44,818 bases of DNA from a virus, in the IMG/VR virus record IMGVR_UViG_3300045988_101875, positions 1-44,818 of that record. One strand, 5' to 3'. The stretch's first letter is position 1. The number at the start of each line of letters is the position of its first letter. The translations under genes and the position numbers were made by a program. Below are positions 1,148 to 44,818 of this stretch, one piece after another. The notes beneath the pieces were generated by a model. That model saw only the letters and a program-made list of their open reading frames with translations. It made no database searches and was not told where the DNA came from.

Positions 1148-1378
1148 ATGCAGATAGATGAGAAACTGCTAGATAAGCTTGCTATAGGTGAAGTCAATGC
1201 CCTTTTAGAAGGACTTGATGACCCTGAGCTGCGTCGCAACCCTGCTTTTCTTGCTAAGGTGCGTGAGTTCTTGAAGCAGAATAAATTACAGACCACCCCT
1301 GAAACCCAAGGGGTACAAAAGATTCAGAAGGTAGTAGAAGAAATTCCTACCTTTGATTTTGATGGGCAGGTGAGCTGA
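1148..1378 (+). CDS. Small terminase subunit (T7 gp18-like DNA maturase A).
   Basis: 76 aa, immediately upstream of and overlapping the large terminase. Helical pattern LEGLDDPELRRNPAFLAKVREFLKQNKLQ resembles T7 gp18 ADLSDHERRSPQLYNAINKLLDRHKFQ. Confidence 0.55.
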   Translation: MQIDEKLLDKLAIGEVNALLEGLDDPELRRNPAFLAKVREFLKQNKLQTTPETQGVQKIQKVVEEIPTFDFDGQVS

Positions 1379-3117
1379 TGTCTGAATGGACAGATGAACA
1401 GGTTGCCAAAGCCAAGGAGGACTTCAGGGTCTTCCTTTTTATCTTATGGAAAATGATTGGTCTTCCACCCCCTACACCTATCCAATATGCAATGGCGCAT
1501 TACTTGCAGTATCCCCCTAGTGACCGCATTATTCTTGAAGCGTTCCGTGGTGCTGCAAAGAGCTTTATTACCTGCGCCTTTGCCGGGTGGAGCTTATGGA
1601 ATAACCCTCAGATTAAAGTAGAGATTGTGTCTGCTTCAAAGGAACGTGCGGATGCCAACGCTGTCTTCATTAAGCGTATCCTTAATGTTCTGCCCTTTTT
1701 AGAGCATTTAAGACCTGATACAACCAAAGGCAACAGAGACACCATGAACCTGTTTGATGTTGCCCCTGCTGTGCCTGACATCTCCCCTTCTGTAAAGTCT
1801 GTAGGTATCTATGGTCAGATTACAGGCTCTCGTGCTGACCTGCTGATTGCTGATGATATTGAGATACCCTCAAACTCTGCAACGCAAATACAGAGAGATA
1901 AGCTAAGTGAAGCAGTTAAGGAATTTGATTCCATCCTTAAACCTAATGGACAGATTGTCTATTTAGGTACACCTCAATGTGAGATGTCTCTTTATAATGA
2001 GTTGCAAAATCGTGGCTACTCCTGCACCATTATCCCTGTTATCTACCCTGAGGATAAAAAGGCTCGTGATAATTATGGTAGCAGGTTGCATACCTTCATT
2101 GCTGATGCACTTGATAAAGACCCCACGTTAGCAGGTAAACCTACTGACCCTCTACGCTTCAATGATGAAGAAATTTTCAAACGTAGACTGTCCTATGGTA
2201 AAGCTGGCTTCGCCTTGCAGTTCCTGCTTGACACAAACCTCTCTGATGCTGAAAAGTATCCGCTCAAAGTGGCTGACTTTATTGTGGCTGACCTTGATAT
2301 GGATGAAGCATCTATGAAGTGGGCATGGGCAAGTGGGTATGAACAACGCCTAAAGGATGTACCCTGTACTGCCCTTAAAGGTGACTTCTTCTATGCCCCT
2401 TTTGACAGGTCTAAAGAAACTGCTAAATATACAGGTACTGTAATGGCTATTGACCCCTCAGGACGTGGTGCGGATGAACTTGCCTATGCTGTTATCAAGA
2501 TTCTCAATGGTTACCTGTTCCTCATGGAAGTTGGTGGCTATCGTGATGGTTATGGTGATGATACCCTCAACATCTTAGCTAATAAGTGTAAATTTTGGGG
2601 CGTGAATGATGTTGTCTCTGAAGCCAACTTCGGTGATGGTATGTGGGGGCAGCTCTTTAAACCTGTGCTGAATAAAGTACACCCTTGCACTTACACAGAA
2701 GTCAAGAACAACAAACAGAAAGAAGCTCGTATCATTGATACGCTTGAACCTGTTATGATGCGTCACAAGCTTATTGTCAACACCTCTGTTATCTATGATG
2801 ATTATAAGGTGTATGAGAATGACCAAAAGTATTCTTTAATCTATCAGCTCACAAGACTGACTAGAGATAAGGGTGCGCTTGCTCACGATGATAGACTTGA
2901 TGCTGTGACTATGGCTGTTGCCTTTTGGCTAGAGAGCTTAGACAGGGATGCTCAACAAGGTATTGATGAACTTGAAGAAGAACAGCTTATGAAATGGTGG
3001 GATTCTGACTTTGGTATTCTACATAAAGAATATAATCCTGAGCTTGTTCCGGAACGCTATAGAAAAAGACAACCACAATTTGGAGGAGCTACTGTGGTTG
3101 ATAACTTTTATAGCTAA
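1378..3117 (+). CDS. Terminase large subunit (T7 gp19-like).
   Basis: 579 aa. AFRGAAKSFITCAFAGWSLWNNPQIKVEIVSASKERADANAVFIKRI and C-terminal ALAHDDRLDA are near-identical in pattern to T7 gp19. Confidence 0.9.
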   Translation: MSEWTDEQVAKAKEDFRVFLFILWKMIGLPPPTPIQYAMAHYLQYPPSDRIILEAFRGAAKSFITCAFAGWSLWNNPQIKVEIVSASKERADANAVFIKRILNVLPFLEHLRPDTTKGNRDTMNLFDVAPAVPDISPSVKSVGIYGQITGSRADLLIADDIEIPSNSATQIQRDKLSEAVKEFDSILKPNGQIVYLGTPQCEMSLYNELQNRGYSCTIIPVIYPEDKKARDNYGSRLHTFIADALDKDPTLAGKPTDPLRFNDEEIFKRRLSYGKAGFALQFLLDTNLSDAEKYPLKVADFIVADLDMDEASMKWAWASGYEQRLKDVPCTALKGDFFYAPFDRSKETAKYTGTVMAIDPSGRGADELAYAVIKILNGYLFLMEVGGYRDGYGDDTLNILANKCKFWGVNDVVSEANFGDGMWGQLFKPVLNKVHPCTYTEVKNNKQKEARIIDTLEPVMMRHKLIVNTSVIYDDYKVYENDQKYSLIYQLTRLTRDKGALAHDDRLDAVTMAVAFWLESLDRDAQQGIDELEEEQLMKWWDSDFGILHKEYNPELVPERYRKRQPQFGGATVVDNFYS

Positions 3118-3437
3118 TGGGTCATATAAACCTGTGAAACTAATGGGTCACATACTCGATAAGAGTAGGAAAGGGACATTATATATACCTATAGATAACT
3201 ATAGATACCTTATAGTTACTATAGATACCATATGACCTTATATGATTCCATATGTAACCCTTAGATACCCTTGGTTCTATAGATACTATAGATACCTAAG
3301 GGTAATTGTTATTATTACTAATAAACCTAATTAATAGATACTTATAGATACCCTAAGGTTTCCTATACCTCCTAAGGATTCCTTAGGGTATTTTTTATTA
3401 TTACCTTAAATAACCTACTTATAGGAGACTATATACC
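3118..3437. repeat. AT-rich non-coding region A with many tatagatac(c) direct repeats and cctaagg/ccttagg palindromes. It is paralogous to region 12786-12960. Candidate genome-end, terminal-repeat or secondary-origin region.
   Basis: Follows the terminase stop. Repeated motifs are visible. Shares ttattaataactaataa-like and cctaagg motifs with region B. Confidence 0.5.
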
Positions 3438-3624: not shown

Positions 3625-4179
3625 ATGTTTACCACGAGAACTAAGAATATAATTGCTCTTTTACTGAGCTTTGCTATTGGAGCTGGTTGCTGCTACTTAT
3701 ATCTAAGAGGAGACAACAAAGCTTCAGAACCCCCTGTGTCCAGCTCAGATTCCAAGGGCGGACTTTTGTCTACCACAGGAATCCATGCTGAGACCAAAGA
3801 CAACCCCAATGATGAGGACTTGGTGTTGTCTAACAAATACGTCGCTGTTATTAATGGCGAGAAAGTGAGTGTGCCGATTGTTAAAAGAACTGCTGGTACT
3901 ATTAATCAACCTGATAGCACTAGTGGCTCTGCTAATGATGCACCACCGGGAGTAAAGGCTACTGTAGAACAGACTGTAGACCTCACTCCTGTGTTGTCTA
4001 AACTGCGCCCCTCTTGGGAGGTAGGTGCAGGTGTGTCCTATGTGAATGAACGTGCATATGTTCCTATATCTATCCAAAGGAACTATCAGGCTGATAAAGC
4101 ACTAGAGCTTACTGTACTTGTAGATACAGATGGTAAAGCTAAGGGTGCTATGGTACAACACAAATGGATGATAAAGTAA
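3625..4179 (+). CDS. Membrane-anchored or secreted protein (N-terminal TM/signal anchor); candidate superinfection-exclusion or conversion protein in the lysogeny module.
   Basis: N-terminal IIALLLSFAIGAGCCYLYL hydrophobic segment followed by a Ser/Thr-rich soluble domain. Confidence 0.5.
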   Translation: MFTTRTKNIIALLLSFAIGAGCCYLYLRGDNKASEPPVSSSDSKGGLLSTTGIHAETKDNPNDEDLVLSNKYVAVINGEKVSVPIVKRTAGTINQPDSTSGSANDAPPGVKATVEQTVDLTPVLSKLRPSWEVGAGVSYVNERAYVPISIQRNYQADKALELTVLVDTDGKAKGAMVQHKWMIK

Positions 4180-4349
4180 AACTTATAACTGCCCAAGAAG
4201 CAGCTAAGATTCTAAGACAAAATAAACCCGACAAGATTTACCTGCTAGTGAGGTCTAAATGCTTGTCGGGTTTCAAATGTGGTAAAAGGTGGCTTATAGA
4301 TGAGGATAGTGTCTATAAGTACATCAATAGGTGTCTTCTGAATCAATAG
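4164..4349 (+). CDS. xis: Excisionase / MerR-type HTH DNA-binding protein.
   Basis: ITAQEAAKILRQ...IYLLVRSKCLSGFKCGKRWLIDEDSVYKYI matches the excisionase-family HTH pattern. Convergent with the integrase. Confidence 0.6.
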   Translation: MDDKVKLITAQEAAKILRQNKPDKIYLLVRSKCLSGFKCGKRWLIDEDSVYKYINRCLLNQ

Positions 4350-4550
4350 TGACCAAAATAGTGACCACTATTCCAAGAATGGCTTAACCATGAGCTTTAC
4401 AGGCTCTAAAGAAAATGTTTTAACCAATACACGTATATGGTTATGTCAAATAGATTATAAAGAAATATATTGTCTAGGTAATAAACTTGTATTATTTTGA
4501 CAATGTATGCCCTTGTAAAACCTGTTGTTTGTGACTTTATAGTGTCACAG

Positions 4551-5696
4551 CTAAGCTTCTATCACAGCAACGTGTTTTTCCGAACATTCCTGCAAGATGT
4601 GTCCGTAGATAGCATAGGTAACCGCTATGCTGGTGTGTCCTAAGCGTTCTGTTATAAGAGCTATGGGTACATGCTTGTAAATCATGTTGGATGCGTTTGT
4701 GTGTCTCAGTCCATGGAACGTGAAAGGTCTAGTGATACCTGCGCCTTTCCTAGTGAAATCCCATGCATGGATAAGCAACCGCTCCACATAGAAGCTATCT
4801 CTTTTCCTATTATAGAAGATATATGGTGACTTGTCAAAGCTAAGTGGCTTTAAAGACATAAGAAGCTGTGTTGTCTTCTCAGATATTTTAATCGTGCGAT
4901 ACCCGGCTTGTGTCTTAGGGTATGTAACTATTGTCTTGTTATTCTTATCCTTAGCTAAGGTTCTTTTTACAGATATTGTATTAGCAGCATCATCAAGACA
5001 ATCCCACGTAAGAGCTAACAGCTCCCCTTCTCTCATGCCTGTTTCATAGGCAAGACAATACAGAGCATAGAACTGATACTTCAGCATAGGTTTCTCCTTG
5101 TGCTCCCATAGTGGCAGGAGGAACGCTTTGATTCGCTCGTGCTCCTCTTGCGATAAGACAACCACTTCATGTTTAGGTTTGTCACTTTTTGGTGTCTTCT
5201 GCATCGAAGTTACAGGTGACTTTCCAATAAGGTCTTGTTCTACACACCATTTGAAAAAGAGCCGTAAGCGACCTAGGTAATTGAGATAGGTATTAGTTGA
5301 ATAGTTCTTTTGTTGCCACTCTAAGAGCATGGTATCTATAGTATGAGTGGTAACCTTAGATAACGCTAAGCCATTAGCTGTGTTGTCTAGGAACTTTAGG
5401 ACACGTCTTGTGGTCAATATTACTGACCCTGACATCCGCTGAGCTTCTAGGTGCTTAAGGTACACCTCACCCTGATACTTTATTGTGTCTTCTTCTGCTT
5501 TTACTTGCAGACCTTTATCCTCTTTGTCTCTCTGAAGCTTCTTCAGCTTCTCCACAGCTTCCTTTTTTGTGTCTGCTGTGGCTGATAGCCATCGCCTTTT
5601 GCCATCCACAGGGTCTAATTCAACCCTGACACGTACTTTACCACTAGGGAGGACTATTATAGACCCCTCTCCTTTAGGTCTTCTACGAGATGGCAT
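4551..5696 (-). CDS. int: Tyrosine integrase (site-specific recombinase).
   Basis: C-terminal HGLRHTNAS...LGHTSIAVTYAIYGHI catalytic motifs. Probable start is ATG at 5696 with SD aggagg (reverse complement of 5704-5709); the ORF-track TTG at 5717 is less likely. Confidence 0.85.
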   Translation of the reverse strand: MPSRRRPKGEGSIIVLPSGKVRVRVELDPVDGKRRWLSATADTKKEAVEKLKKLQRDKEDKGLQVKAEEDTIKYQGEVYLKHLEAQRMSGSVILTTRRVLKFLDNTANGLALSKVTTHTIDTMLLEWQQKNYSTNTYLNYLGRLRLFFKWCVEQDLIGKSPVTSMQKTPKSDKPKHEVVVLSQEEHERIKAFLLPLWEHKEKPMLKYQFYALYCLAYETGMREGELLALTWDCLDDAANTISVKRTLAKDKNNKTIVTYPKTQAGYRTIKISEKTTQLLMSLKPLSFDKSPYIFYNRKRDSFYVERLLIHAWDFTRKGAGITRPFTFHGLRHTNASNMIYKHVPIALITERLGHTSIAVTYAIYGHILQECSEKHVAVIEA

Positions 5697-6209
5697 TATA
5701 AAACCTCCTGACTTCAAAAATTGCCAAAAATTGTGAAAGGGTATATATAATATAGAGATTGGCTGGTTTCCCCCCGTGCCCGGGGTCTTTGGGTCTCCTG
5801 TCGAAAATAGTGTACACTACATCTGAATAGCATATGCTATATCGGTGTTCCCAAGGGTACAAGTTACGTCCGATAATATATCTTATGTTAAATTTACCTT
5901 GTTTGTGGCAAGAGATAACCAAGCAAGCTATATGTTAGTACCTGCTTTTTATGGGGATATTGCGAACATATGTACATTATTACGAACACTTATATGTTTT
6001 ACTTTAGTATGGTAAAGTGTTAAAGTATCCAAAAATATGGCGTATAATGTATCTGTATTATATGCCCTAGGTATCTACTGTATCTACCATATCCACTATA
6101 TCCATTATATCCCTGAGCTGCCGTTGGTTGCTACTAGCTACATTACTATAGATACTATTGTTACCATTAATTACTATTGCTACAGACATTATACAGTCAC
6201 CAGCTACTA

Positions 6210-6398
6210 TTATATATCACTGCTGCGCTTGTGTGTAATGGTGGTATCCTGCTGCTCATGTATCCATTGAGTTATTAGCTGCCTGAGTAGCTCACTGCTA
6301 TTAATAGCCTTACTTTTACATAATGTTTGAAATTGCGTCCTTAACTCTTTTGATACTCTTACTTGTATAAATACGTCTTTTTGTTTTTCGTCAAACAT
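6210..6398 (-). CDS. Ribbon-helix-helix (Arc/CopG-type) DNA-binding protein; candidate lysogeny repressor.
   Basis: VRVSKELRTQFQTLCKSKAINSSELLRQLI is a beta-strand plus helix RHH pattern. Strong SD aaggagg. Divergent from the early promoter. Confidence 0.6.
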   Translation of the reverse strand: MFDEKQKDVFIQVRVSKELRTQFQTLCKSKAINSSELLRQLITQWIHEQQDTTITHKRSSDI

Positions 6399-6425
6399 GA
6401 AAAATTCCTCCTTTTCTCCATTATA

Positions 6426-6503
6426 CTACATCTCACTACATTATGCTACATTCTTATAAAATTTTCTATTTTTTTGTTGTGTAATGTATTGACATGTAAT
6501 GTG
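6426..6503. promoter_or_regulatory. Operator-like repeats: three CTACAT(T/C) copies at 10-bp spacing (6426, 6436, 6446), and two inverse-oriented TAATGT(A/G) copies flanking the -35 box (6481, 6496).
   Basis: Direct observation of repeats with helical periodicity, lying between the divergent RHH gene and the early promoter. Confidence 0.5.
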
Positions 6504-6517
6504 AACTGTGGTATTAT
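6489..6517 (+). promoter_or_regulatory. Near-consensus sigma70 promoter (TTGACA, 17-bp spacer, TGgTATTAT extended -10) driving the rightward early operon.
   Basis: -35 TTGACA at 6489-6494; 17-bp spacer; TG at 6509-6510; -10 TATTAT at 6512-6517. Confidence 0.7.
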
Positions 6518-6525
6518 ATAACCAT

Positions 6526-6563
6526 AGGGAGATACAAAAAGACTATATCCCTATATATTTTTT
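6526..6563 (+). terminator. Hairpin (agggagata/tatatccct) followed by atatatttttt in the early-promoter leader; candidate attenuator or terminator.
   Basis: 8 of 9 bp stem, 9-nt loop, then a T6 tract, located between the promoter and the first early ORF. Confidence 0.4.
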
Positions 6564-6609
6564 AAACGCCATGTAGTGACAACACACTACAAAAGGGAGG
6601 AAAAAGACA

Positions 6610-6789: not shown

Positions 6790-6880
6790 GCTTTTATCGA
6801 TGCTACTAGCTGGCTAGCTAGTGGCATTCATTAAGAGCTTATTAAACTCTTAAACTTAATAACCTAGGAGGTAAATTAAT
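6788..6880 (+). repeat. Intergenic repeat element type A, copy 1: agcttttatcg, an imperfect palindromic hairpin, the conserved 27-mer tcattaagagcttattaaactcttaaa, then SD.
   Basis: The 27-mer is identical to the one at 7940-7966 and partially conserved at 8872-8920. It contains an internal taagag/ctctta inverted repeat. Confidence 0.7.
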
Positions 6881-7105
6881 ATGGTAAAAAATGTGTGTCT
6901 TATGCTGGCGGTGTTGCTCATGGTACACCTGAGCTGCGACGCTGCCACTGCTGGAGAGTGTGAAAGCTGCATGAGCGGTGAACCTACTACCCTGCAAGTT
7001 ATTATCCGTGATGTGTCTATGGGCAGCCTAAGTGCTGCTGCTGCTGATGCTGGCTTGTATGAGCTGGCGGATGTGTTGTTGTCTATGGAGGATACAAATA
7101 AATGA
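6881..7105 (+). CDS. Small secreted Cys-containing protein (signal peptide).
   Basis: MVKNVCLMLAVLLMVHLSCDAATA signal-like N-terminus. SD ctaggaggta. Confidence 0.5.
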   Translation: MVKNVCLMLAVLLMVHLSCDAATAGECESCMSGEPTTLQVIIRDVSMGSLSAAAADAGLYELADVLLSMEDTNK

Positions 7106-7902: not shown

Positions 7903-7994
7903 TAAACTTTTATCGGTACTACCGCTCCGGCGGTGGTACTCATTAAGAGCTTATTAAACTCTTAAAATTTAATAACCTTGGAGGTACAAAAAAA
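7903..7994 (+). repeat. Intergenic repeat element type A, copy 2.
   Basis: acttttatcg, hairpin ggtactaccgc..gcggtggtact, then the identical 27-mer at 7940-7966, then SD. Confidence 0.7.
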
Positions 7995-8828
7995 ATGTAT
8001 GTCATTACACTTGAAGACTTAAGCTACAAACAAATGCATGAGCTTAATAACAAATTAGTGACGTTTGGCAGCGGTGTTAGCGCAACCAGCGTTGACGATG
8101 AGGGAAAAAGCTGGCGTGTATCGGTAACTACCGGGGATAACGCTTATACACGGCAAGTATTAGCTGCTATTACTGCCACACTGTCCCAATCTGTAGTTGT
8201 CCCCTACTACACTATAGACCAGCTACCCAGCGACGTGCAAAAAGAGGTTGCACAAAAAGCTATTGACGATAACTATTATTGGGACGTATGGCAAGGTGAG
8301 CGTAACAAGTCATTTGATACTATCTGTGAACGGTTAGACCTGCAATGGGGCTGTGATAACTATGATAACTATTATGTAGAGGAGACAAGCCCCGAATGGT
8401 ATGCAAAGGATATACAAGGCGCAAGCCGTGTTATTGCTTATATCCGTAATCGCTGGGGAGCTTTTAAAAACCCTATGTATGTAGACAAGGATAAACATAG
8501 CACTTTTTACAAGCTTCTGCATAAAAAAGGCGCTGCCCTGCCCCAAAAGTTTACTGAGGAGGCAATGCCCACCGGATACTGTGGCGACTATTGCTTTTAT
8601 GAAGCATATGCAAGGTTTTTAGAGCTTGTACGCAAGCAACCGGATACTATTACCCTTGCTGACTTTTGTAGCTGCCTTGCAGGTGCTTTTGAAAAAGAGT
8701 ATCAAGCAGACTATGAACAGGCAAACTCTATTGACTATGCTATAGAGTTTTTATGTCAAGATAACTACTATACATGGCAAGGCAAGGATATTACAGATGT
8801 AGTCAACGCCTATATGGTAGCAAAATAA
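7995..8828 (+). CDS. Hypothetical early protein (277 aa; Tyr/Trp/Cys-rich, no recognised domain).
   Basis: Long ORF with SD. Confidence 0.55.
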   Translation: MYVITLEDLSYKQMHELNNKLVTFGSGVSATSVDDEGKSWRVSVTTGDNAYTRQVLAAITATLSQSVVVPYYTIDQLPSDVQKEVAQKAIDDNYYWDVWQGERNKSFDTICERLDLQWGCDNYDNYYVEETSPEWYAKDIQGASRVIAYIRNRWGAFKNPMYVDKDKHSTFYKLLHKKGAALPQKFTEEAMPTGYCGDYCFYEAYARFLELVRKQPDTITLADFCSCLAGAFEKEYQADYEQANSIDYAIEFLCQDNYYTWQGKDITDVVNAYMVAK

Positions 8829-8928
8829 ATAGCTTTTATCGGGTACACCAGCTTATAACAGTTGGTGTATCTCATTAAGAGTTATTCGCATAACCCTTAA
8901 AAATATAAAGCTAGGAGGTATAGCAAAA
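8829..8928 (+). repeat. Intergenic repeat element type A, copy 3 (diverged).
   Basis: agcttttatcg, hairpin gtacaccagc..gttggtgtat, ctcattaagag..., then ctaggaggta. Confidence 0.55.
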
Positions 8929-9089
8929 GTGAAAAAATGTTTAGCATACCTGATTGAATGCTGCTTAGTATCTAAACGTACAAATCAGGTACTGAAAGAA
9001 ATAGCAAGATGTATAGCAGCCTTGCTTTTTGTCCTATTTTTCAGCATTGATTGGGATACAACGCTGAATGCGTGGGGGGTGCTTAAATA
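8929..9089 (+). CDS. Small hydrophobic protein (GTG start).
   Basis: SD ctaggaggta 8 nt upstream of the GTG. Stop overlaps the next ATG (TAATG). Confidence 0.35.
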
Positions 9090-9649: not shown

Positions 9650-9864
9650 TGGGAGAGCATAAGAGACAAGGTAAGACCTTTTTCGTGACTGTAGATGCTC
9701 ATATGCAAATTGCGGTACATCGTGCCCCCAGCGGACATTTTTCCTATATTATCTACTACGATGGTAGACAAACTACCGGGGCATTGCGTATCACACAGGC
9801 TCATGCAGCGGATAAGCTGAGATTGACGCTGCCGGAACTGCTGGAAAAATTCAAACTTGACTAG
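9649..9864 (+). CDS. Hypothetical early protein (71 aa); last gene of the early operon.
   Basis: ATG overlaps the preceding stop (TAATG). Followed by a terminator. Confidence 0.45.
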   Translation: MGEHKRQGKTFFVTVDAHMQIAVHRAPSGHFSYIIYYDGRQTTGALRITQAHAADKLRLTLPELLEKFKLD

Positions 9865-9877
9865 CTAAAAACTGAAC

Positions 9878-9911
9878 AGAGGTACGGACAAAACTGTACC
9901 TCTAATTTTTT
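9878..9911 (+). terminator. Rho-independent terminator ending the early operon.
   Basis: Stem agaggtac/gtacctct, then aatttttt. Confidence 0.7.
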
Positions 9912-9912
9912 G

Positions 9913-10131
9913 CACCCTTTTTTCGCCCCTCAACCAAACGGAACGAAACGATGTTCGTAGTTACCGAAGCTCACCTGAGCGGAACGAAACGTGTTGTCTT
10001 GTGCGACGCACGGAGCGAAACGAAACGAGGATGCAGGGGCAACCCAAGCTGACAAGGGGTGCAAGGGAATTTTAGGGCAAGCAAGGCAAGCCAAAGGGTC
10101 ACTGAATATTGAAGAAAGCAAGCAAGTTGCT
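9913..10131 (+). promoter_or_regulatory. GC-rich leader upstream of the RNAP gene, with three GGA(A/G)CGAAACG repeats and G-rich gcaagg repeats.
   Basis: Repeats at about 9939, 9981 and 10012. Composition clearly differs from the flanking sequence. Confidence 0.4.
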
Positions 10132-10159
10132 CAATGGGTACACGTAAATGAAAGAAGAC
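10132..10159 (+). promoter_or_regulatory. Conserved 28-bp element, copy 1 (caATGGGTACACGTAAAtgaaagaagac); candidate phage-RNAP promoter or regulatory site.
   Basis: Near-identical copies at 12782-12809 and 12965-12993. Confidence 0.45.
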
Positions 10160-10184
10160 CCATTATAACTAGGAGGTATTTATA

Positions 10185-12785
10185 ATGACAAATGAAGAAC
10201 TGATGCAAGAAGAATTGAACTTAGAATCATCTTACAGACAAGATGGTTACGAAGCAGCTTTATCTGCTCTCTATGAAGCCAAAGAAAAAGAGATGGTTGA
10301 TACTGCTTTGCCTATCGGACAAGCGTTCTTCAGACACAAAGCAATGGTTGTCAAGAAAACTATGGAAGAATGGCTCATTAAAAACATGAAGCCTAAAGCT
10401 GGTGTCAAGCAGAACTTTATCTTCCTGCTGGATGATTTGAAACGTGAATTTGTTACTGCTGATGGTGATGTGGATATTGATACTATTGCCAATATCTGCT
10501 CCTCTGTCACCCTCTCCTGCCTTATCAATGCCTTAACAACCAACAGCAGTAAAGGTATGGCGTTCTTTAATGATATAGGAGCACGTATCGGTGTTAACCT
10601 GATGTTTGAGTATCAGACACAATGCTTTGATAATTGGCTGAAGACCTTACCTAAAGAAGACAAAAACAGAAAAGCACTTGCAGGTATCGACAAGCGCATC
10701 GGTATGCATTATCGCTATGTATACATGAAGAAGGCTGTTAAAAACTGTGGTTACAACATGCCTACATGGGAACAAGGTGACAATGAAGCACTTATCAACT
10801 TAGGGTGTGCTCTGCTGACATTGACAGAAGACACAACAGGATATTGGTATCGTGATTCTGACATGCACACACCTACATACCTTGTCCCCACCCCTGAATT
10901 TATTGAAGCATGGGAACGAAACGAAGACAACATGCTTGCACTTGCCCACAAGAGCTGTCCTATGGTTGTTCCACCAAAAGAGTGGGTATCTTATGATGAG
11001 GGCGGTTACTATGGAGACCTTGCAGCTTTTTCAACATTCCTGCGCTTAAAATATGGACACAACGCTTTCAGAAAAACCTATGAAGCACGTCTGCATCAAT
11101 TAGATACCCCTGATGTTTATAAGGCAGTGAACAGTATCCAAGCAACAGCATGGTGCATCAACAAAGAGGTGTTGTCTATCATCAAACAATGCCGTACCTT
11201 AGGCTATATCCCCTACGGCAAGCAGAAAGACACACACATTATGAGCTTAGATTTGGATGATGGAAAACCTGCTGATTTGCCTGAACACCCTACGGATGAG
11301 ATGGTTAAGGAATACAAGAAAAATAAAGCTCAATGGTGGAAAGGGCAAAAAAGAAGAATATCTATTATCAATCGCTCTAATACCATGATAAACATAGCGG
11401 ATAAGTTCAGTGTCTATGAGAATATCTATTTTCCTTGGAATATGGATTTTAGAGGACGTATCTATCCTATTCCATCTTTCAGTCCCCAAGGTGATGATAT
11501 TTGCAAAGGCTTGTTGCTCTTTTCTGCTACCCCTCCTTGTCAAGACCCTAAAGATATTGAATGGCTTGCCATTACCGGAGCTAACCTTGCAGGTGAAGAC
11601 AAAATCAGCTATGCTGACCGCATCCAATGGGTTTATGCCAATGAAGAAGTTATTCTTGATGTAGCAAAAGACCCTATGGGTAACTTATGGTGGTTACATA
11701 AAGACAAAAAGCCTGTACAACTGCTGGCATGGTGTCTTGAATGGGCAAAAGCTAAGCAGTGGATAGCTGCCCATGGCTCTATTGTTGGTTGGGTAACAGG
11801 TCTCCCCTATGCTCAGGACGGCACATGCTCAGGTCTGCAACATTTCAGTGCTATTCTGCGTGACCCCATCGGTGGTGCTGCGGTGAACCTTGTACCCCAA
11901 GACAAACCGAATGACATCTATCGCTTGGTAGCTGACAAGGTAAATGTTGTCTTGAAGCAGGATGCTATGTCAGGCACTATTGACGAATGGGACGAAGAAA
12001 AGCTGAAGACCAAGTTCGGTACAAAAACTATGGCGCAGATATGGTTAAATTATGGTGTTAACCGCACTGTAACCAAAAGACCTACTATGACCCTTGCCTA
12101 TGGTGCTAAAAAGCGTGGCTACACTGAACAGATTATGGAAGATACAATCAGACCAGCTCTGAACGCTAAGACTACCTGTGGTTTTACAGAGACTAATGCC
12201 TATCAATGTGCTATGTATATGGCTGAGCTGATATGGAACTCTGTAGGTGCTACTGTTGTACGTGCTGTTGAGGGCATGGATTGGTTACATAAAGTTTCCA
12301 AACTTGTCACCAAAAATGCAAATGTAGTGTCTTGGTGCACACCTTTAGGTCTCTTGTTGCAACAAAATTATTTAAAGTATGAATCTAAGGTGATTAAGTT
12401 ACGTTGTGCCGGAAAGCGATTCAGAGTGTATGTCCCCCACCAAACAGGTGTGATTGATAAGACAAAACAGGCTAATGGTATTGCTCCGAACTTTATTCAC
12501 TCCATGGATGCCTGTCACCTTCAAATGACAGTATGCAGAGCTAAGGATGCTGGTATCAATCACTTTACCATGGTGCATGATTCTTATGGTTGCCCTATGT
12601 CTCAGGCTAAACTGATGTATGAGATTGTACGTAAAGCCTTTGTAGATATGTATACAGAGCATGATGTCTTGGATGAGTTTAGACAATATCTGCAACCTTT
12701 GGTGAATAAAGAACTCCCTGCTCCCCCTAAAAAAGGTGATTTAGACCTCAACATTGTATTGGACAGTAAGTACATCTTCTGCTAA
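10185..12785 (+). CDS. T7-like single-subunit DNA-directed RNA polymerase.
   Basis: 866 aa. Palm motifs ...PNFIHSMDACHLQ... and MVHDSYGC. Overall architecture and position as in T7 gene 1. Confidence 0.92.
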   Translation: MTNEELMQEELNLESSYRQDGYEAALSALYEAKEKEMVDTALPIGQAFFRHKAMVVKKTMEEWLIKNMKPKAGVKQNFIFLLDDLKREFVTADGDVDIDTIANICSSVTLSCLINALTTNSSKGMAFFNDIGARIGVNLMFEYQTQCFDNWLKTLPKEDKNRKALAGIDKRIGMHYRYVYMKKAVKNCGYNMPTWEQGDNEALINLGCALLTLTEDTTGYWYRDSDMHTPTYLVPTPEFIEAWERNEDNMLALAHKSCPMVVPPKEWVSYDEGGYYGDLAAFSTFLRLKYGHNAFRKTYEARLHQLDTPDVYKAVNSIQATAWCINKEVLSIIKQCRTLGYIPYGKQKDTHIMSLDLDDGKPADLPEHPTDEMVKEYKKNKAQWWKGQKRRISIINRSNTMINIADKFSVYENIYFPWNMDFRGRIYPIPSFSPQGDDICKGLLLFSATPPCQDPKDIEWLAITGANLAGEDKISYADRIQWVYANEEVILDVAKDPMGNLWWLHKDKKPVQLLAWCLEWAKAKQWIAAHGSIVGWVTGLPYAQDGTCSGLQHFSAILRDPIGGAAVNLVPQDKPNDIYRLVADKVNVVLKQDAMSGTIDEWDEEKLKTKFGTKTMAQIWLNYGVNRTVTKRPTMTLAYGAKKRGYTEQIMEDTIRPALNAKTTCGFTETNAYQCAMYMAELIWNSVGATVVRAVEGMDWLHKVSKLVTKNANVVSWCTPLGLLLQQNYLKYESKVIKLRCAGKRFRVYVPHQTGVIDKTKQANGIAPNFIHSMDACHLQMTVCRAKDAGINHFTMVHDSYGCPMSQAKLMYEIVRKAFVDMYTEHDVLDEFRQYLQPLVNKELPAPPKKGDLDLNIVLDSKYIFC

Positions 12786-12809
12786 TGGGTACACGTAAAC
12801 GAAGAAAGA
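12782..12809 (+). promoter_or_regulatory. Conserved 28-bp element, copy 2; overlaps the RNAP stop codon.
   Basis: taATGGGTACACGTAAAcgaagaaagac. Confidence 0.45.
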
Positions 12810-12960
12810 CAATAGATAACTATAGTTTTCTATAGATTCTATAGAGACCTTTAAGGACCTAAGGTTATGTTATTAATAACTAATAATAACTTACCTAAGG
12901 TAACTAAAGGTCTCTATTGTCTTTATAGTCCCTTTAAAATCCTTTAGGTAACTAAAGAAA
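12786..12960. repeat. AT-rich non-coding region B (origin-like). Contains a 12-bp inverted repeat atagagaccttt (12840-12851) / aaaggtctctat (12905-12916), cctaagg palindromes and tatagat repeats. Paralogous to region A.
   Basis: Direct observation. The position immediately after the RNAP gene parallels the T7 primary origin. Confidence 0.5.
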
Positions 12961-12964
12961 ATGC

Positions 12965-12993
12965 TAATGGGTACACGTAAACGAAGAAAAGAC
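12965..12993 (+). promoter_or_regulatory. Conserved 28-bp element, copy 3.
   Basis: taATGGGTACACGTAAAcgaagaaaagac. Confidence 0.45.
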
Positions 12994-13057
12994 AACACAC
13001 TTTTCAAAAATCTAAATCGAGCCGTTTCTATCAACCTTTCTGTGTGTTGTCTTTTCT
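12985..13057. repeat. Perfect 16-bp inverted repeat agaaaagacaacacac (12985-13000) / gtgtgttgtcttttct (13042-13057), separated by 41 bp.
   Basis: Exact reverse-complement match read from the sequence. Confidence 0.8.
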
Positions 13058-13083
13058 CAATAATTTTTAAGGAGGTATTGTCT

Positions 13084-13524
13084 ATGTTGAAACAGGACGC
13101 TCGTGTAGGTCAGAGGGTATCAGTTACACATGGTGCTGATAAAGGCTGCACAGGTATAGTAATAGGCTTAAGGTCTACACATGCTCTTGTCCATCTTGAT
13201 GGTAGTGAATCTGCGCTGGTTAGTTTTTTAAGTTACGACATGCTTGAACCTTATACACCTGACCATGCCACTAGCAATCAAGCAAAATATTATGATGAGC
13301 ATTATGCATCCATGGTAGGCTTAGAGCCTATCGAACTGATGCAGCTTGTGTTGTCTCCTGCTGAATTTATCGGCTTTCTCAAAGGCAACATCATCAAATA
13401 CACCCTGCGTGCTGGAAAGAAGCAAGGTGAAGCTGCAGAAAAGGATGCAGCTAAGGCTAAACGCTATACCGAATGGCTTACGAAACTTGGCTATAAGATG
13501 CCAATCAATCCAAAGGAGGACTAA
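13084..13524 (+). CDS. DUF3310-family protein (N-terminal KOW-like segment).
   Basis: C-terminal ...AEFIGFLKGNIIKYTLRAGKK... matches the DUF3310 signature. SD aaggagg. The track ORF start at 12961 lies in the non-coding promoter element. Confidence 0.6.
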   Translation: MLKQDARVGQRVSVTHGADKGCTGIVIGLRSTHALVHLDGSESALVSFLSYDMLEPYTPDHATSNQAKYYDEHYASMVGLEPIELMQLVLSPAEFIGFLKGNIIKYTLRAGKKQGEAAEKDAAKAKRYTEWLTKLGYKMPINPKED

Positions 13525-25633: not shown

Positions 25634-25668
25634 TAACCCCCTCCCATAAGTGGAGGGTTATTTTTTTT
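25634..25668 (+). terminator. Rho-independent terminator between the scaffold and capsid genes.
   Basis: Stem taaccc(cc)tcc/ggagggtta with a 2-nt bulge, followed by T8. Confidence 0.65.
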
Positions 25669-25695
25669 ATTCAAAATTATTAAAGGAGTGATTTA

Positions 25696-26709
25696 ATGGC
25701 TGATATGATTATTGCCAACCCCGGTCTTGCACAATCTGATAAAGGCAAAGACCGCTTAGGTTTATTTCTGAAAATGTTTACCGGTGAAGTTCTCACCGCT
25801 TTCTCTCAATCCACTATTACCGGTGGTCGCTTCTCTGAGCGTACTATCGAACATGGTAAATCTGCTATCTTCCCCATTGTAGGTCGTGCAAAAGCTAAGT
25901 ACCTGAAAGCAGGTAAGAACTTGGATGACCTGCGCACCCCCATTGAGCACAATGAGCGCACTATCGTGCTGGATGGTCTGCTGACCTCTGACTGCATGAT
26001 TTTTGATTTGGATGAAGCTATGAACCACTTTGAGCTGCGCTCTAAGTATTCTAAGGAAATGGGTGAAGCATTGGCTGTTGCTCAGGACTGCGCTATCTTG
26101 GCTGAAGTAGCTAAGATGATTGTAGCAGACAAAGAGAACTTGCCTACCAATGCTACTACTGGTGTTAAAGGCACTGGCAAAGGTCTGATTGTCACCGAGA
26201 CTGTGGCAACCGCTGACTATGGCGAGACTGAAGCTATGGGTGTAGCTATCTTTAAGGAACTGCTGAAAATCAAGACCAAAATGTCTGAGAACAATGTTCC
26301 GCTGGCAGGTCGCAACTGCTACATCAAACCGATGGCACTCAATGCACTGATCGCCAACAAAGACATCATCAACAAACTGTATGGTGCTTCTATGACCATT
26401 GAGGGTAACAACCCTCCGAAACTGATTGGTTTCGATTTGATTGAAGCTCCTCTGCTGACCGAGGGTGGTGTAGATAACGAGAATGTTATGCAAGGTGATG
26501 GTCATGTATTCCCTACTACCTACAAAGACACCTGCCAATTCATTGTGGCACATCCGTCTTCTGCTGGTATCTTGACCCTCAAAGGTCTTGGTATGGAACA
26601 TGCTCGCCGTCCTGAATATCAGGCTGACCAAATTATTGCTAAATATGCAAAAGGCTTTGGTGGTCTGCGCCCTGAAGCAGCCTTCATGGGTGTTGTAACT
26701 CAGGCTTAA
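25696..26709 (+). CDS. Major capsid protein (T7 gp10-like).
   Basis: LGLFLKMFTGEVLTAFS... and C-terminal YQADQIIAKYAKGFGGLRPEAA align closely with T7 gp10A. Confidence 0.92.
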   Translation: MADMIIANPGLAQSDKGKDRLGLFLKMFTGEVLTAFSQSTITGGRFSERTIEHGKSAIFPIVGRAKAKYLKAGKNLDDLRTPIEHNERTIVLDGLLTSDCMIFDLDEAMNHFELRSKYSKEMGEALAVAQDCAILAEVAKMIVADKENLPTNATTGVKGTGKGLIVTETVATADYGETEAMGVAIFKELLKIKTKMSENNVPLAGRNCYIKPMALNALIANKDIINKLYGASMTIEGNNPPKLIGFDLIEAPLLTEGGVDNENVMQGDGHVFPTTYKDTCQFIVAHPSSAGILTLKGLGMEHARRPEYQADQIIAKYAKGFGGLRPEAAFMGVVTQA

Positions 26710-26726
26710 TTTTAAACTACTAACCT

Positions 26727-26759
26727 TAGGGGATGGCGTATGCTGTCCCCTATTTTTTC
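26727..26759 (+). terminator. Rho-independent terminator after the capsid gene (Tphi-like position).
   Basis: agggga...tcccct hairpin, then tatttttt. Confidence 0.65.
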
Positions 26760-26781
26760 TAAATAATGAAAGGAGATGTCA

Positions 26782-41207: not shown

Positions 41208-41229
41208 AAAGACAGGGTTGTTGTCTTTT
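41207..41229 (+). terminator. Hairpin aaaagaca/tgtctttt (7-nt loop) after the fiber-assembly gene; possible terminator.
   Basis: The U-tract is part of the stem, so this is not a classical terminator. Confidence 0.35.
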
Positions 41230-41269
41230 CCCTTTAGGGGTTTATGGGTGGGCAGAAAGGATTTTTATT

Positions 41270-42879: not shown

Positions 42880-42886
42880 GATTTAC

Positions 42887-42916
42887 GAGGGAGCTTAGTC
42901 TCCCTCTTTTATTTTT
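42887..42916 (+). terminator. Rho-independent terminator after the endolysin.
   Basis: gagggag/ctccctc stem, then ttttattttt. Confidence 0.7.
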
Positions 42917-42935: not shown

Positions 42936-44818
42936 TTGAAAATTAAGAAACGTGATGGGTCTCTCGTAGACTTTAATAAAGACAAAATTATTAATGCTAT
43001 CTCTAAGGCTGGCTTTGTAGCTTCAAAGACAAAAAATGCTATTGCTGATGTTGTTGAAAAGATGGCAAAAAAAGAAACACTAACTGTGGAAAAGATACAA
43101 GATATTGTGGAAACTGAGCTTATGCTGAACTATTACCCTGAGGTAGCTAGAGAATATGTTCGCTATCGCTATAAACGTGAGCTTATCCGTAATACCAAAG
43201 GTGCTTTGAGTGAAGTGCTTGAAATTGTCAACCTCAGCAACCAAGATGTGAATGAGGAGAACTCTAATAAGAACCCTGTTATTTTGTCGACCCAACGTGA
43301 CTATATGGCAGGTATGGTCTCTAAAGAGCTTTCTGAAAAGCTGTTGTTCCCTCCGGATGTAATGAAGGCACATAAAGCAGGTATCATCCATGTGCATGAT
43401 ATGGACTATGCTATCCAAAAGATGTACAACTGTGCTCTGTTAGACATGGAAGACATGCTCCAAAATGGCACTGTAATCAATGGTACGATGATTGAAAAGC
43501 CACATAGCTTTGCTACTGCTTGCAATATTGCTACTCAGATTATGGCACAGGTCGCTTCTAACCAATATGGTGGGCAAAGTGTGTCGGTAGCACATTTAGC
43601 TCCTTTTGTCAATACCTCTAGACAAAAAATTAAAGAAGAAGTTAAGCAGGAACTAGAAGATATTCAGGCAGAGTATTGTGAGACAGACTTAGACTATATC
43701 ACAGAAAAGCGATTGAAAGCTGAAATCACTAAGGGTGTACAGACAATGCAATATCAGATTAATACCCTTATGACATCCAATGGTCAGACACCCTTTGTTA
43801 CCTTATTCTTATATCTTAATGAAGCTAAGAACGAGCAGGAGAAGAAAGACCTTGCTATGGTGATTGAGGAAATCATCCGTCAACGCTATCAGGGTGTCAA
43901 GAATGAAAAGGGTGCATGGATTGCTGCTGCGTTTCCTAAGCTGATTTATGTCTTAGAGGAAGACAACATCCGTAAGGGTACACCCTATTATTACCTCACA
44001 GAGATGTGTGCTAAATGTACTGCTAAGCGTATGCAGCCTGATTATTTGTCTGAGAAGATTATGCTGAAGAACAAGAAGACTGAAGATGGTGTGGGTCACT
44101 GCTATCCACCTATGGGATGCAGAAGCTTCTTGACACCCTATCTTGATGAGAATGGTAAAGCTAAATTCTATGGTCGCTTCAACCAAGGTGTTGTCTCCAT
44201 CAACCTTGTGGATGTGGCGTTGTCCGCTGGTAAAGACAAAAATAAATTTTGGTCTATTCTTGATGAGCGTTTGGAGTTGTGCCATAAAGCCTTACGTGTA
44301 AGACACCAAAACCTTAAAGGTACAATCTCTAATGTCTCCCCTATCCATTGGCAATATGGTGCTATTGCTCGTCTGCAAAAAGGTGAGAAGATTGACAAGC
44401 TGTTGGAAAATGGCTACTCCACTATCTCCCTTGGCTATGCAGGTCTCTATGAGTGTTGTATGGCAATGTTCGGTAAATCTCATACTGACCCTACTGTGAA
44501 ACCCTTTGCTCTCTCTGTCATGCAACATCTTAATGACAAATGTGCTGAATGGAAAGCTAAGGAACATTTAGGCTATAGTGTCTATGGTACTCCTATGGAG
44601 ACCACCACATATAAGTTTGCGAAGTGTCTTCGTGACCGCTTTGGGGTAATCAAGGAAGTCACTGACCATGATTACATTACCAATAGCTATCATGTGAATG
44701 TCCGTGAACCTATTGACCCCTTCACCAAACTGCAATTTGAATCTGAGTTTCAACTGCTCAGTCCGGGCGGTGCTATTAGCTACATTGAGTGTGCTGATAT
44801 GACCAAGAATATTGATGC
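42936..44818 (+). CDS. nrdD: Anaerobic ribonucleoside-triphosphate reductase NrdD, N-terminal and main part; continues at 1..254.
   Basis: TTG start with SD aaaggagg. N-terminal ATP-cone KIKKRDGSLVDFNKDKIINAI. Frame open to the window end. Total length 693 aa including the wrap. Confidence 0.85.
   Translation, partial: MKIKKRDGSLVDFNKDKIINAISKAGFVASKTKNAIADVVEKMAKKETLTVEKIQDIVETELMLNYYPEVAREYVRYRYKRELIRNTKGALSEVLEIVNLSNQDVNEENSNKNPVILSTQRDYMAGMVSKELSEKLLFPPDVMKAHKAGIIHVHDMDYAIQKMYNCALLDMEDMLQNGTVINGTMIEKPHSFATACNIATQIMAQVASNQYGGQSVSVAHLAPFVNTSRQKIKEEVKQELEDIQAEYCETDLDYITEKRLKAEITKGVQTMQYQINTLMTSNGQTPFVTLFLYLNEAKNEQEKKDLAMVIEEIIRQRYQGVKNEKGAWIAAAFPKLIYVLEEDNIRKGTPYYYLTEMCAKCTAKRMQPDYLSEKIMLKNKKTEDGVGHCYPPMGCRSFLTPYLDENGKAKFYGRFNQGVVSINLVDVALSAGKDKNKFWSILDERLELCHKALRVRHQNLKGTISNVSPIHWQYGAIARLQKGEKIDKLLENGYSTISLGYAGLYECCMAMFGKSHTDPTVKPFALSVMQHLNDKCAEWKAKEHLGYSVYGTPMETTTYKFAKCLRDRFGVIKEVTDHDYITNSYHVNVREPIDPFTKLQFESEFQLLSPGGAISYIECADMTKNID

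Follow-up and report, generated by a model that had tools for sequence, protein, structure and literature searches.

A putative promoter of a T7-type phage RNA polymerase and a palindromic, origin-like block beside the polymerase gene

Results

A triplicated element surrounds the RNA polymerase gene

The sequence studied here, IMG/VR virus record IMGVR_UViG_3300045988_101875, is referred to below as the window and comprises the whole stretch of 44,818 nucleotides (nt). Its gene for a single-subunit RNA polymerase (RNAP), which occupies 10185-12785 on the + strand and encodes 866 amino acids (aa), is accompanied by three copies of a short element that, judging from sequence comparison, very probably serves the phage's own T7-type RNAP as promoter. 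Co-variation of this element with the polymerase among related phages is the strongest argument for reading it as a promoter. A conserved AT-rich, palindromic block lies between the second and third copies, and promoters combined with a transcription-activated replication origin appear to be the best joint explanation of the region, which we hold with slightly more than even confidence. The polymerase itself matches phage RNAPs with E values down to 1e-141 and aligns to the T7 and Syn5 RNAPs with the catalytic motifs conserved.

The 16-mer AATGGGTACACGTAAA occurs exactly at 10133, 12784 and 12966, always on the + strand, and 0 of 100 shuffles reached three matches. A preliminary description of this region had reported a 28-base-pair (bp) element in triplicate; the three copies are present, but the longer repeat measures 27 nt, is exact at 12784 with three mismatches each (ungapped) in the copies at 10133 and 12966, and sits 1-2 nt from the positions first given. 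No further copy with up to three mismatches to the 15-mer core exists on either strand of the whole genome. The late region holds neither more promoter copies nor a second promoter class, its intergenic gaps containing only terminator-like hairpins, and an exact-motif search of IMG/VR returned, beyond close relatives, just single scattered matches. All copies are co-oriented with the genes and are intergenic or at gene ends: one precedes the RNAP gene, one overlaps the stop codon of that gene, and one precedes the replication module.

The first copy, P1 (10132-10160, + strand), combines the promoter copy CAATGGGTACACGTAA at 10132-10147 with the purine-rich leader ATGAAAGAAGAC and lies ~52 bp upstream of the RNAP start codon at 10185; its AATGGGT (10133-10139) is complementary to ACCCATT at 10158-10164. 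The second, P2 (12783-12812, + strand), carries TAATGGGTACACGTAA at 12783-12798, where the RNAP stop codon TAA (12783-12785) forms part of TAATGGG, and its leader, ACGAAGAAAGACAA, is U-free, with the first T at 12813. The third, P3 (12965-13000, + strand), repeats TAATGGGTACACGTAA at 12965-12980, lies 182 bp from P2 and heads the replication-gene module; its leader, ACGAAGAAAAGACAACACAC, is also U-free, and that of P1 reads ATGAAAGAAGACCCA. We describe the element as bipartite: recognition would reside in 16-17 bp, TAATGGGTACACGTAA, followed by a conserved leader, U-free and purine-rich, that is presumably the first part to be transcribed.

The element co-varies with the polymerase

About 45 related contigs are found in IMG/VR. 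Promoters and block were compared at the three sites in 25 relatives, and core orientation and post-terminase elements in 26 related loci; W denotes the phage of the window, L0xx a related IMG/VR locus, and a clade percentage the RNAP identity to W. All three sites are kept in the 25 relatives: about -52 relative to the RNAP ATG, on the stop codon of the RNAP gene, and ~182 bp beyond it. Each clade has its own version of the element, and the three copies within a genome change in concert. W, L001 and L003 form a clade with TAATGGGTACACGTAAAC, in which the variant segment is ACACGTAAAC. L002, whose RNAP is 96% identical, shows a G-to-A change in all three copies, giving ACACATAAAC. The ~84% clade has TAATGGG[G/T]CA[C/T]AAACAT followed by GAAG (segment CA[C/T]AAACATG), and the ~64% clade has TAATGGGTCACAGAATATT followed by GAAG, with CACAGAATATTG as the counterpart of the variant segment. 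Put differently, the upstream half, TAATGGGxxA, is constant across clades and the half at -6 to +1 is switched, such that promoters sharing TAATGGGxxAC differ fully at about -6 to +1 (CGTAAAC, CATAAAC, AAACATG or AGAATATTG).

Inspection of the polymerases reveals where the matching changes may lie. Residues 431-866 of the RNAP, specificity loop included, are 97% identical between the W and 84% clades, in contrast to only 66-74% for residues 1-430. Neither the specificity loop nor KNMKPKAGVK, the homologue of the T7 AT-rich-recognition loop, differs at all between these clades. Between W and L002, 32 of the 866 residues differ. Four of these substitutions (R223S, D224A, M227I and H228R) are clustered within six residues of the segment that aligns to the intercalating hairpin of T7, and each of the three promoter copies of L002 departs from its W counterpart at one base near -4. 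The T7 hairpin opens the duplex at about -4/-5, which matches the position of the L002 promoter change.

The upstream half of the promoter (TAAT plus GGGxAC, about -12 to -7) would be read by the AT-rich-recognition loop together with the specificity loop, and the downstream half (-6 to +1) would be matched to the N-terminal domain and the intercalating hairpin. We tentatively propose, at a confidence clearly below even, that these clades represent natural, near-isogenic orthogonal RNAP-promoter pairs whose specificity may have been switched outside the classical specificity loop.

A more distant relative, L028 (RNAP 39% identical), keeps the layout after the RNAP gene, in the order promoter, TACCTAAAGG array, AT-rich stretch and promoter, with a T7-type promoter core, ATTGTAACTCACA, that is completely different. 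A search of IMG/VR with its repeat unit, TACCTAAAGGTATCC, aimed at a possible recurrence at the end of the L028 genome, found only the post-RNAP site in this incomplete contig; other matches to TACCTAAAGGTATCC (e.g., in L093) were set aside as chance.

Promoter-like sequences also occur ahead of the polymerase gene. Just upstream of P1, AAAGGGTCACTGAATATTGAAGAAAG at 10093-10118 resembles the 64%-clade promoter TAATGGGTCACAGAATATTGAAG but lacks TAAT; it has the appearance of a relic promoter and hints at promoter turnover. In loci L019-L021, the RNAP gene is preceded by three promoter-like elements in tandem.

The element follows the register of Syn5 and KP32 promoters

The Syn5 promoter has been defined experimentally as ATTGGGCACCCGTAA followed by G, with +1 directly after GTAA, and the element of the window is identical to it at 12 of 15 positions. 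Validated KpnP/KP32 promoters, AATTAGGGCACACTATA followed by G, place GGGCAC at -12 to -7 in the same register as Syn5, and the element shares GGGxAC at these positions. The GGG would therefore be an upstream contact at -12 to -10 and not a T7-like initiating GGG at +1 to +3. This register resolves a puzzle of geometry that had been raised earlier, when the conserved sequence was seen to lie downstream of GGG and not upstream as in T7: the observation is correct, but the GGG is read here as a Syn5/KP32-type contact rather than as the start. Transcription would begin ~16-18 nt downstream of the T of TAATGGG, with predicted +1 positions at 10148-10150 (P1), 12799-12801 (P2) and 12981-12983 (P3). 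For P2, the Syn5/KP32 register points to A 12799, and the conserved G-start of the U-free leader to 12801.

The likeness to Syn5 extends beyond the 12 of 15 bases, which include GGG at -12 to -10 and CGTAA at -5 to -1. The initial transcripts of both Syn5 promoters lack U, and Syn5 transcription drops when the first nine nt contain more than two U; the purine-rich, U-free leaders of the two phages each form the 5' arm of a hairpin. Copies are very few in both genomes and stand at the RNAP gene and at the terminase stop codon. Syn5 has just two promoters, of which one lies within the RNAP gene and the other 6 bp behind the terminase stop; its RNAP has a processivity of >30 kilobases (kb), and genomes with 'Syn5-like' promoters contain two of them on average. 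The window, in which strong copies number three near the RNAP gene, weak ones two at the terminase stop, and none stands ahead of the late genes, therefore fits this class. In contrast to Syn5, the predicted +1 is an A, or a G two bases on; there are three strong copies, one of them upstream of the RNAP gene rather than inside it; and no repeat or AT-rich block follows the Syn5 copy. Relative to KpnP/KP32 (K11-type) promoters, relatives of W with TAATGGGGCACAAACAT followed by GAAG match the 17-nt geometry exactly, whereas positions -6 to -1 read CGTAAA or AAACAT here and not the near-universal CTATA/CTAAA, and the leader is of GAAGAA type where theirs is GGGA.

The two weak elements, of TAATGGGTCA type, occupy 3115-3165 on the + strand behind the terminase large subunit gene (1378-3117, + strand). 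The first, TAATGGGTCATATAAACC at 3115, overlaps the terminase stop codon, and the second, TAATGGGTCACATACTC followed by GATAAGAG, begins at 3141. Both had been noticed in the preliminary description as weaker variants, and both are indeed present, paralleling the verified Syn5 promoter 6 bp past the terminase stop. With the upstream promoter half retained, they may be promoters of lower strength.

Several observations weigh against the promoter reading. A 12/15 match to the Syn5 promoter is expected by chance 0.84 times per 45-kb window, and what gives it weight is that it coincides with the one element present in triplicate. TAAT and the GAAG leader are 17, 18 or 19 nt apart depending on clade, so the exact +1 is ambiguous. 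The RNAP is just 26% identical to that of Syn5 and 35% to that of T7, and is therefore closer to the latter. Lastly, the post-terminase elements do not co-vary with RNAP clade; in 24 of 26 relatives, whatever their clade, these elements are near-invariant and show no more than single-base changes.

A conserved palindromic block separates P2 and P3

Comparison with the 64% clade gives 90-92% nucleotide identity for the block and 88-90% for the P3 leader, versus 72% for the last 600 nt of the RNAP gene, 73% for the promoter elements and ~53% for the next gene, where alternative genes are present. The block would be a conserved cis-module working with whichever promoter variant flanks it, and this constant, palindromic, origin-like cassette may accept any flanking promoter 'plug'.

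The block, ~150 bp of non-coding sequence, has a GC content of 0.25-0.27 (z about -3). It contains tandem 9-10-bp units bearing the palindrome CTATAG (12820-12849; hexamers at 12820, 12830 and 12839), whose copy number among relatives is 2 in L010, 3 in most and 4 in L024; 8 of the 20 genomic CTATAG copies sit either here or at 3189-3286. A long imperfect palindrome of 120 nt spans 12805-12924 around an AT-rich center, 12866-12893, that is almost pure A/T. Within it, the 12-bp inverted repeat ATAGAGACCTTT / AAAGGTCTCTAT and the CCTAAGG palindromes (12858 and 12894), both noted earlier between the last two promoter copies, are present as described, the former being part of a larger imperfect palindrome, 12830-12865 / 12893-12928 (36 nt, 78%). 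A second imperfect inverted pair joins 12805-12827 to 12902-12924 (23 nt, 87%), and the P2 leader sequence AAAGACAATAG pairs with CTATTGTCTTT. Folding of 12805-12924 yields a free energy (dG) of -49.7 kcal/mol for RNA (z -6.1), and z -6.6 for DNA. Genome-wide, only five inverted-repeat pairs were found (seed 11, arms no more than 200 bp apart), three of them in the block and one post-terminase; no other palindrome cluster of the genome is as strong as the block. Immediately before P3, 12929-12960 holds short repeats of CCTTTA/CTTTAGG type together with a small hairpin, CCTTTAGGTAACTAAAGG.

Between the arms GAGACCTT (12844-12851) and AAGGTCTC (12907-12914) lies a 55-bp core, 12852-12906, which is reverse-complemented in 7 of the 26 loci (L004, L006, L007, L008, L014, L017 and L025, from four datasets). 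These seven form one promoter subclade, which points to a probably single historical flip at the palindrome. The role of the core, whatever it is, is orientation-independent. A small open reading frame (ORF) of 26 codons from 12868 was rejected as a gene on account of this inversion.

Behind P3, its transcript leader contains a hairpin at 12985-13057 (+ strand), in which a perfect 16-bp stem, 12985-13000 / 13042-13057, encloses an unstructured 41-nt loop; the perfect inverted repeat with 41-bp spacer claimed earlier is therefore confirmed. The stem arms are conserved, with polymorphisms from A-U to G.U only, and the loop is variable with indels; the fold has z -2.2. An intrinsic terminator, for which a GC-rich stem, a loop of 3-8 nt and a T-run directly behind would be expected, was rejected for this repeat, given the 41-nt loop and the lack of a call in a terminator search of 9800-13300. 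At 41208-41232, AAAGACAGGGTTGTTGTCTTTTCCC forms a small hairpin from an AAAGACA / TGTCTTT motif, as in the P2 and P3 leader hairpins.

A related block, 3180-3410, follows the post-terminase elements, with 10-bp CTATAGATACC units, CCTAAGG/CCTTAGG and the AT-rich TTATTATTACTAATAA. Its segment 3275-3366 is homologous to 12828-12917 (local score 50, versus 20.2 +/- 2.7 and a maximum of 31 in shuffles), and it is nearly invariant in 24 relatives regardless of RNAP clade. A sigma-70 scan of the post-terminase block found no convincing + strand promoter.

The block as a candidate replication origin

Position and composition suggest that the block may be a transcription-activated primary origin of the T7 phi1.1A/B type, a proposal that we favor among the possible roles but rate as nearing, yet not reaching, an even chance. 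In T7, gene 1 ends at 5822, phi1.1A lies at 5848, phi1.1B at 5923, and gene 1.1 starts at 6007; phi1.1A/B form the primary origins, phiOR near the right end is a secondary origin, and every T7 origin needs a T7 promoter. The analogy drawn in the preliminary description is positionally correct, the block lying directly after the RNAP gene as phi1.1A/B do after gene 1. Two cognate promoters, predicted ones in the window, follow the RNAP gene ahead of replication genes (class II in T7), and in the window a second module of putative promoters and repeats follows the terminase gene, like phiOR. The T7 region downstream of phi1.1B has an AT-rich run and CCTTAAGG/CTTTAAG-flavored motifs, similar to the CTTAAG/CCTTAAGG-like motifs found here. 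The two arrangements differ in that the AT-rich block sits between promoters 182 bp apart in the window, whereas in T7 it comes after the second of two promoters 75 bp apart, and in that the block here is a long imperfect palindrome with tandem 10-bp units.

The strongly conserved block is directly ahead of the genes for single-stranded DNA-binding protein (SSB), primase/helicase and DNA polymerase, and its AT-rich segment adjoins P2 on the downstream side, as T7-type origins need. Transcription from P2 would enter and open the AT-rich palindromic core and supply a primer, and the primed core would lie just upstream of replication genes driven by P3.

Against an origin at this site stand several points. 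GC skew, followed as cumulative GC and AT skew on the rotated genome, is positive throughout and has no inflection at 12.9 kb, although the skew is uninformative because the genome is transcribed almost entirely from one strand. The AT-richness claimed earlier is real (12812-12961, GC 0.267, z = -3.1) but similar or stronger elsewhere, the block being only the 4th to 9th most AT-rich genome window (12812-12961 is tied 4th-5th lowest among 150-bp windows). Recent recombination could account for part of its conservation, the genome being mosaic. The common polymorphisms in the stems are without exception compatible with G.U pairs, which suggests selection on RNA pairing, instead of or besides a role in DNA. 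Of the earlier interpretation as a whole, the promoter part is strongly supported by comparison and the origin part is inference only.

Alternative explanations of the block

The block hairpins would probably also act in messenger RNA (mRNA) processing or stabilization once transcribed. RNA-level roles are at least additional and possibly sufficient. In the fullest version of this idea, P2 and P3 are tandem promoters of the replication and late genes, and the block and P3 hairpin have no replication role; there might be an R1.1-like RNase III site that defines and stabilizes the 3' end of the RNAP mRNA, along with 5' leader hairpins that protect phage transcripts or tune translation. We consider such an RNA-only explanation unlikely, although several observations favor it. 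The P2 transcript folds into the stable 120-nt hairpin described above, the P2 and P3 leaders (AAAGACAA) each have a downstream complement, TTGTCTTT, and the core fold survives inversion. The transcript leader of the Syn5 post-terminase promoter also forms a 5' hairpin, CAAGAGA...TCTCTTG. The T7 RNase III site R1.1 lies between phi1.1A and phi1.1B, and is likewise a long imperfect transcript hairpin between two post-RNAP promoters, but the hairpin here is much longer, AT-rich and devoid of compensatory covariation. Among the 70 predicted pairs, several show A-U to G.U changes and pair-breaking changes are singletons, but none shows a compensatory double change. Moreover, conservation is at the level of primary sequence and includes unpaired parts and the tandem CTATAG units, a homologous block is present post-terminase, at a place with no obvious need for an mRNA 3' end or 5' leader, and the P3 hairpin has an open 41-nt loop with a modest z. 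A search of 9800-13400 against Rfam 15 gave only sub-threshold microRNA-precursor matches on both strands, attributable to a generic hairpin shape, and no family match.

It is improbable that the phased CTATAG/CCTAAGG units (post-RNAP, post-terminase and at ~6070-6170) are instead iterons or operators of a protein-binding array, whose binder could be a lysogeny regulator of an integrase-carrying phage or a packaging/end-recognition factor and could block or modulate P2 and P3. In favor of such an array, the hexamers are spaced 9-10 bp apart, 8 of their 20 genomic copies lie in the two blocks, and relatives differ in how many units they carry. Comparable units are also present beside the integrase gene, in a third non-coding region; integrase and HTH_17 protein are both encoded by this phage; and L028 has its TACCTAAAGG arrays at the equivalent post-RNAP site. 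T7 carries CCTAAAG-type repeat arrays next to its terminal repeats. However, a Pfam scan of the early ORFs found no repressor-like gene, the sole HTH match being the HTH_17 protein beside the integrase gene; no sigma-70-type + strand promoter overlaps the post-terminase array; and CTATAG is not over-represented globally (20 observed versus 15.6 expected).

That the elements are not promoters at all, and represent a recombination 'boundary' or other cis-signal homogenized by gene conversion with a coincidental likeness to Syn5, is very improbable: the genomes are clearly mosaic (terminase module, RNAP halves, gene after P3) and a 12/15 match arises about 0.8 times per window by chance, but the elements are diverged parts (73%) within conserved flanks (90%) where boundaries should be conserved, their changes go together with those of the N-terminal domain of the RNAP, every copy has the same orientation and stands upstream of a gene, and register and U-free leader are shared with validated promoters.

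Genome context

The first 55 bases of the window are identical to 44764-44818, and the ~44.8-kb assembly is circularly closed and belongs to a T7-like podophage; because of this circularization, the physical genome ends or terminal repeat are not defined by the sequence. Nearly all genes lie on the + strand. The closest isolated phages have RNAPs at most 38% and terminases at most 57.5% identical. Searches of 50,697 phage records with the RNAP region, the block and the post-terminase block (megablast, blastn) gave no match, and neither did an RNAP search of GTDB genome contigs. The genes after P3 are nucleotide-kinase-like, dUTPase, gp2.5-like SSB, endonuclease I, primase/helicase and DNA polymerase; the first of these (146 aa, + strand) has the ribosome-binding site (RBS) AAGGAGG at 13069-13075 and its ATG at 13084.

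Mosaicism is evident in the terminase module, which is ~100% identical across RNAP clades, in the different histories of the N- and C-terminal halves of the RNAP, and in the alternative versions of the gene after P3. In L025, the RNAP match at 4001-6594 has a length of 2594 nt, not divisible by three, and similarity is lost after about residue 260; this RNAP gene carries a frameshift that reflects either an assembly error or a pseudogene. On the minus strand, a gene for a tyrosine integrase (4554-5717; PHROG integrase, E 3e-60) faces a gene for a 61-aa HTH_17 protein (4164-4349), a kind that we take to be usually associated with excisionases. The gap between them includes 4405-4504, the most AT-rich gap of the genome (GC 0.22). 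Together, integrase, HTH_17 protein and AT-rich gap suggest a temperate T7-like phage with attP located there. Several related IMG/VR contigs end ~1065 or 1477 bp past the terminase stop, around 4180-4600 of the window.

A proposed transcription scheme

A near-consensus host-type promoter, TTGACA-17-TATTAT with an extended TG, is found at about 6480-6525; near 6490-6520 it would probably drive the early operon. Upstream of P1, a strong intrinsic-terminator-like hairpin with a T-run (9878-9903) is present, as is a non-coding leader of ~220 bp with GGAACGAAACG and GCAAGCAAGG repeats that is kept in all relatives with 64-98% RNAP identity, the conserved stretch totaling 280 bp. This leader could be an attenuator or a regulator-binding region for the first polymerase expression. 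Read-through would make the first polymerase, P1 would amplify RNAP synthesis in an autocatalytic positive feedback, and P2 and P3 would next drive replication and late genes. No further copy of the element lies downstream, so P3 probably drives the whole late region, as in Syn5.

Other repeats and hairpins accompany this scheme. A third non-coding region, 6060-6180, has 9-bp TATCCACTA-type repeats and a CTATAGATAC unit, like the post-terminase block (local score ~40). An early three-copy element, GTGGCATTCATTAAGAGCTTATTAAACTCTTAAACTTAATAACCTAGGAGGT (6821-6890, 7933-8003 and 8892-8937), forms the hairpin TTAAGAG...CTCTTAA ahead of an RBS and may be an inter-cistronic processing site or terminator. 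Terminator-like GC hairpins with T-runs at 25640-25672 and 26727-26760 flank the probable major capsid gene (25696-26709), the latter position recalling T7 T-phi after gene 10, and a further one is located at 42885-42915.

Discussion

The analysis provides a testable promoter set and transcription map for an integrase-carrying T7-like lineage known only from metagenomes. Known kinds appear to be extended here, in that T7-group promoters in the Syn5/KP32 register are combined with a T7-style post-RNAP origin region, and the block is a candidate origin suited to a four-protein T7-style system. The T7/Syn5 paradigm is extended in this way, and current understanding is not overturned.

The most interesting aspect is that the downstream half of the promoter co-varies with the N-terminal domain of the RNAP while the specificity loop is unchanged. 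If this is true, the N-terminal domain would read the melting and initiation region in a sequence-specific manner, which would add a second determinant of specificity, one that could be engineered. The clade-to-clade switches would then constitute a natural experiment on how single-subunit RNAPs read positions -6 to +1, and may offer new orthogonal polymerase/promoter pairs for synthetic biology.

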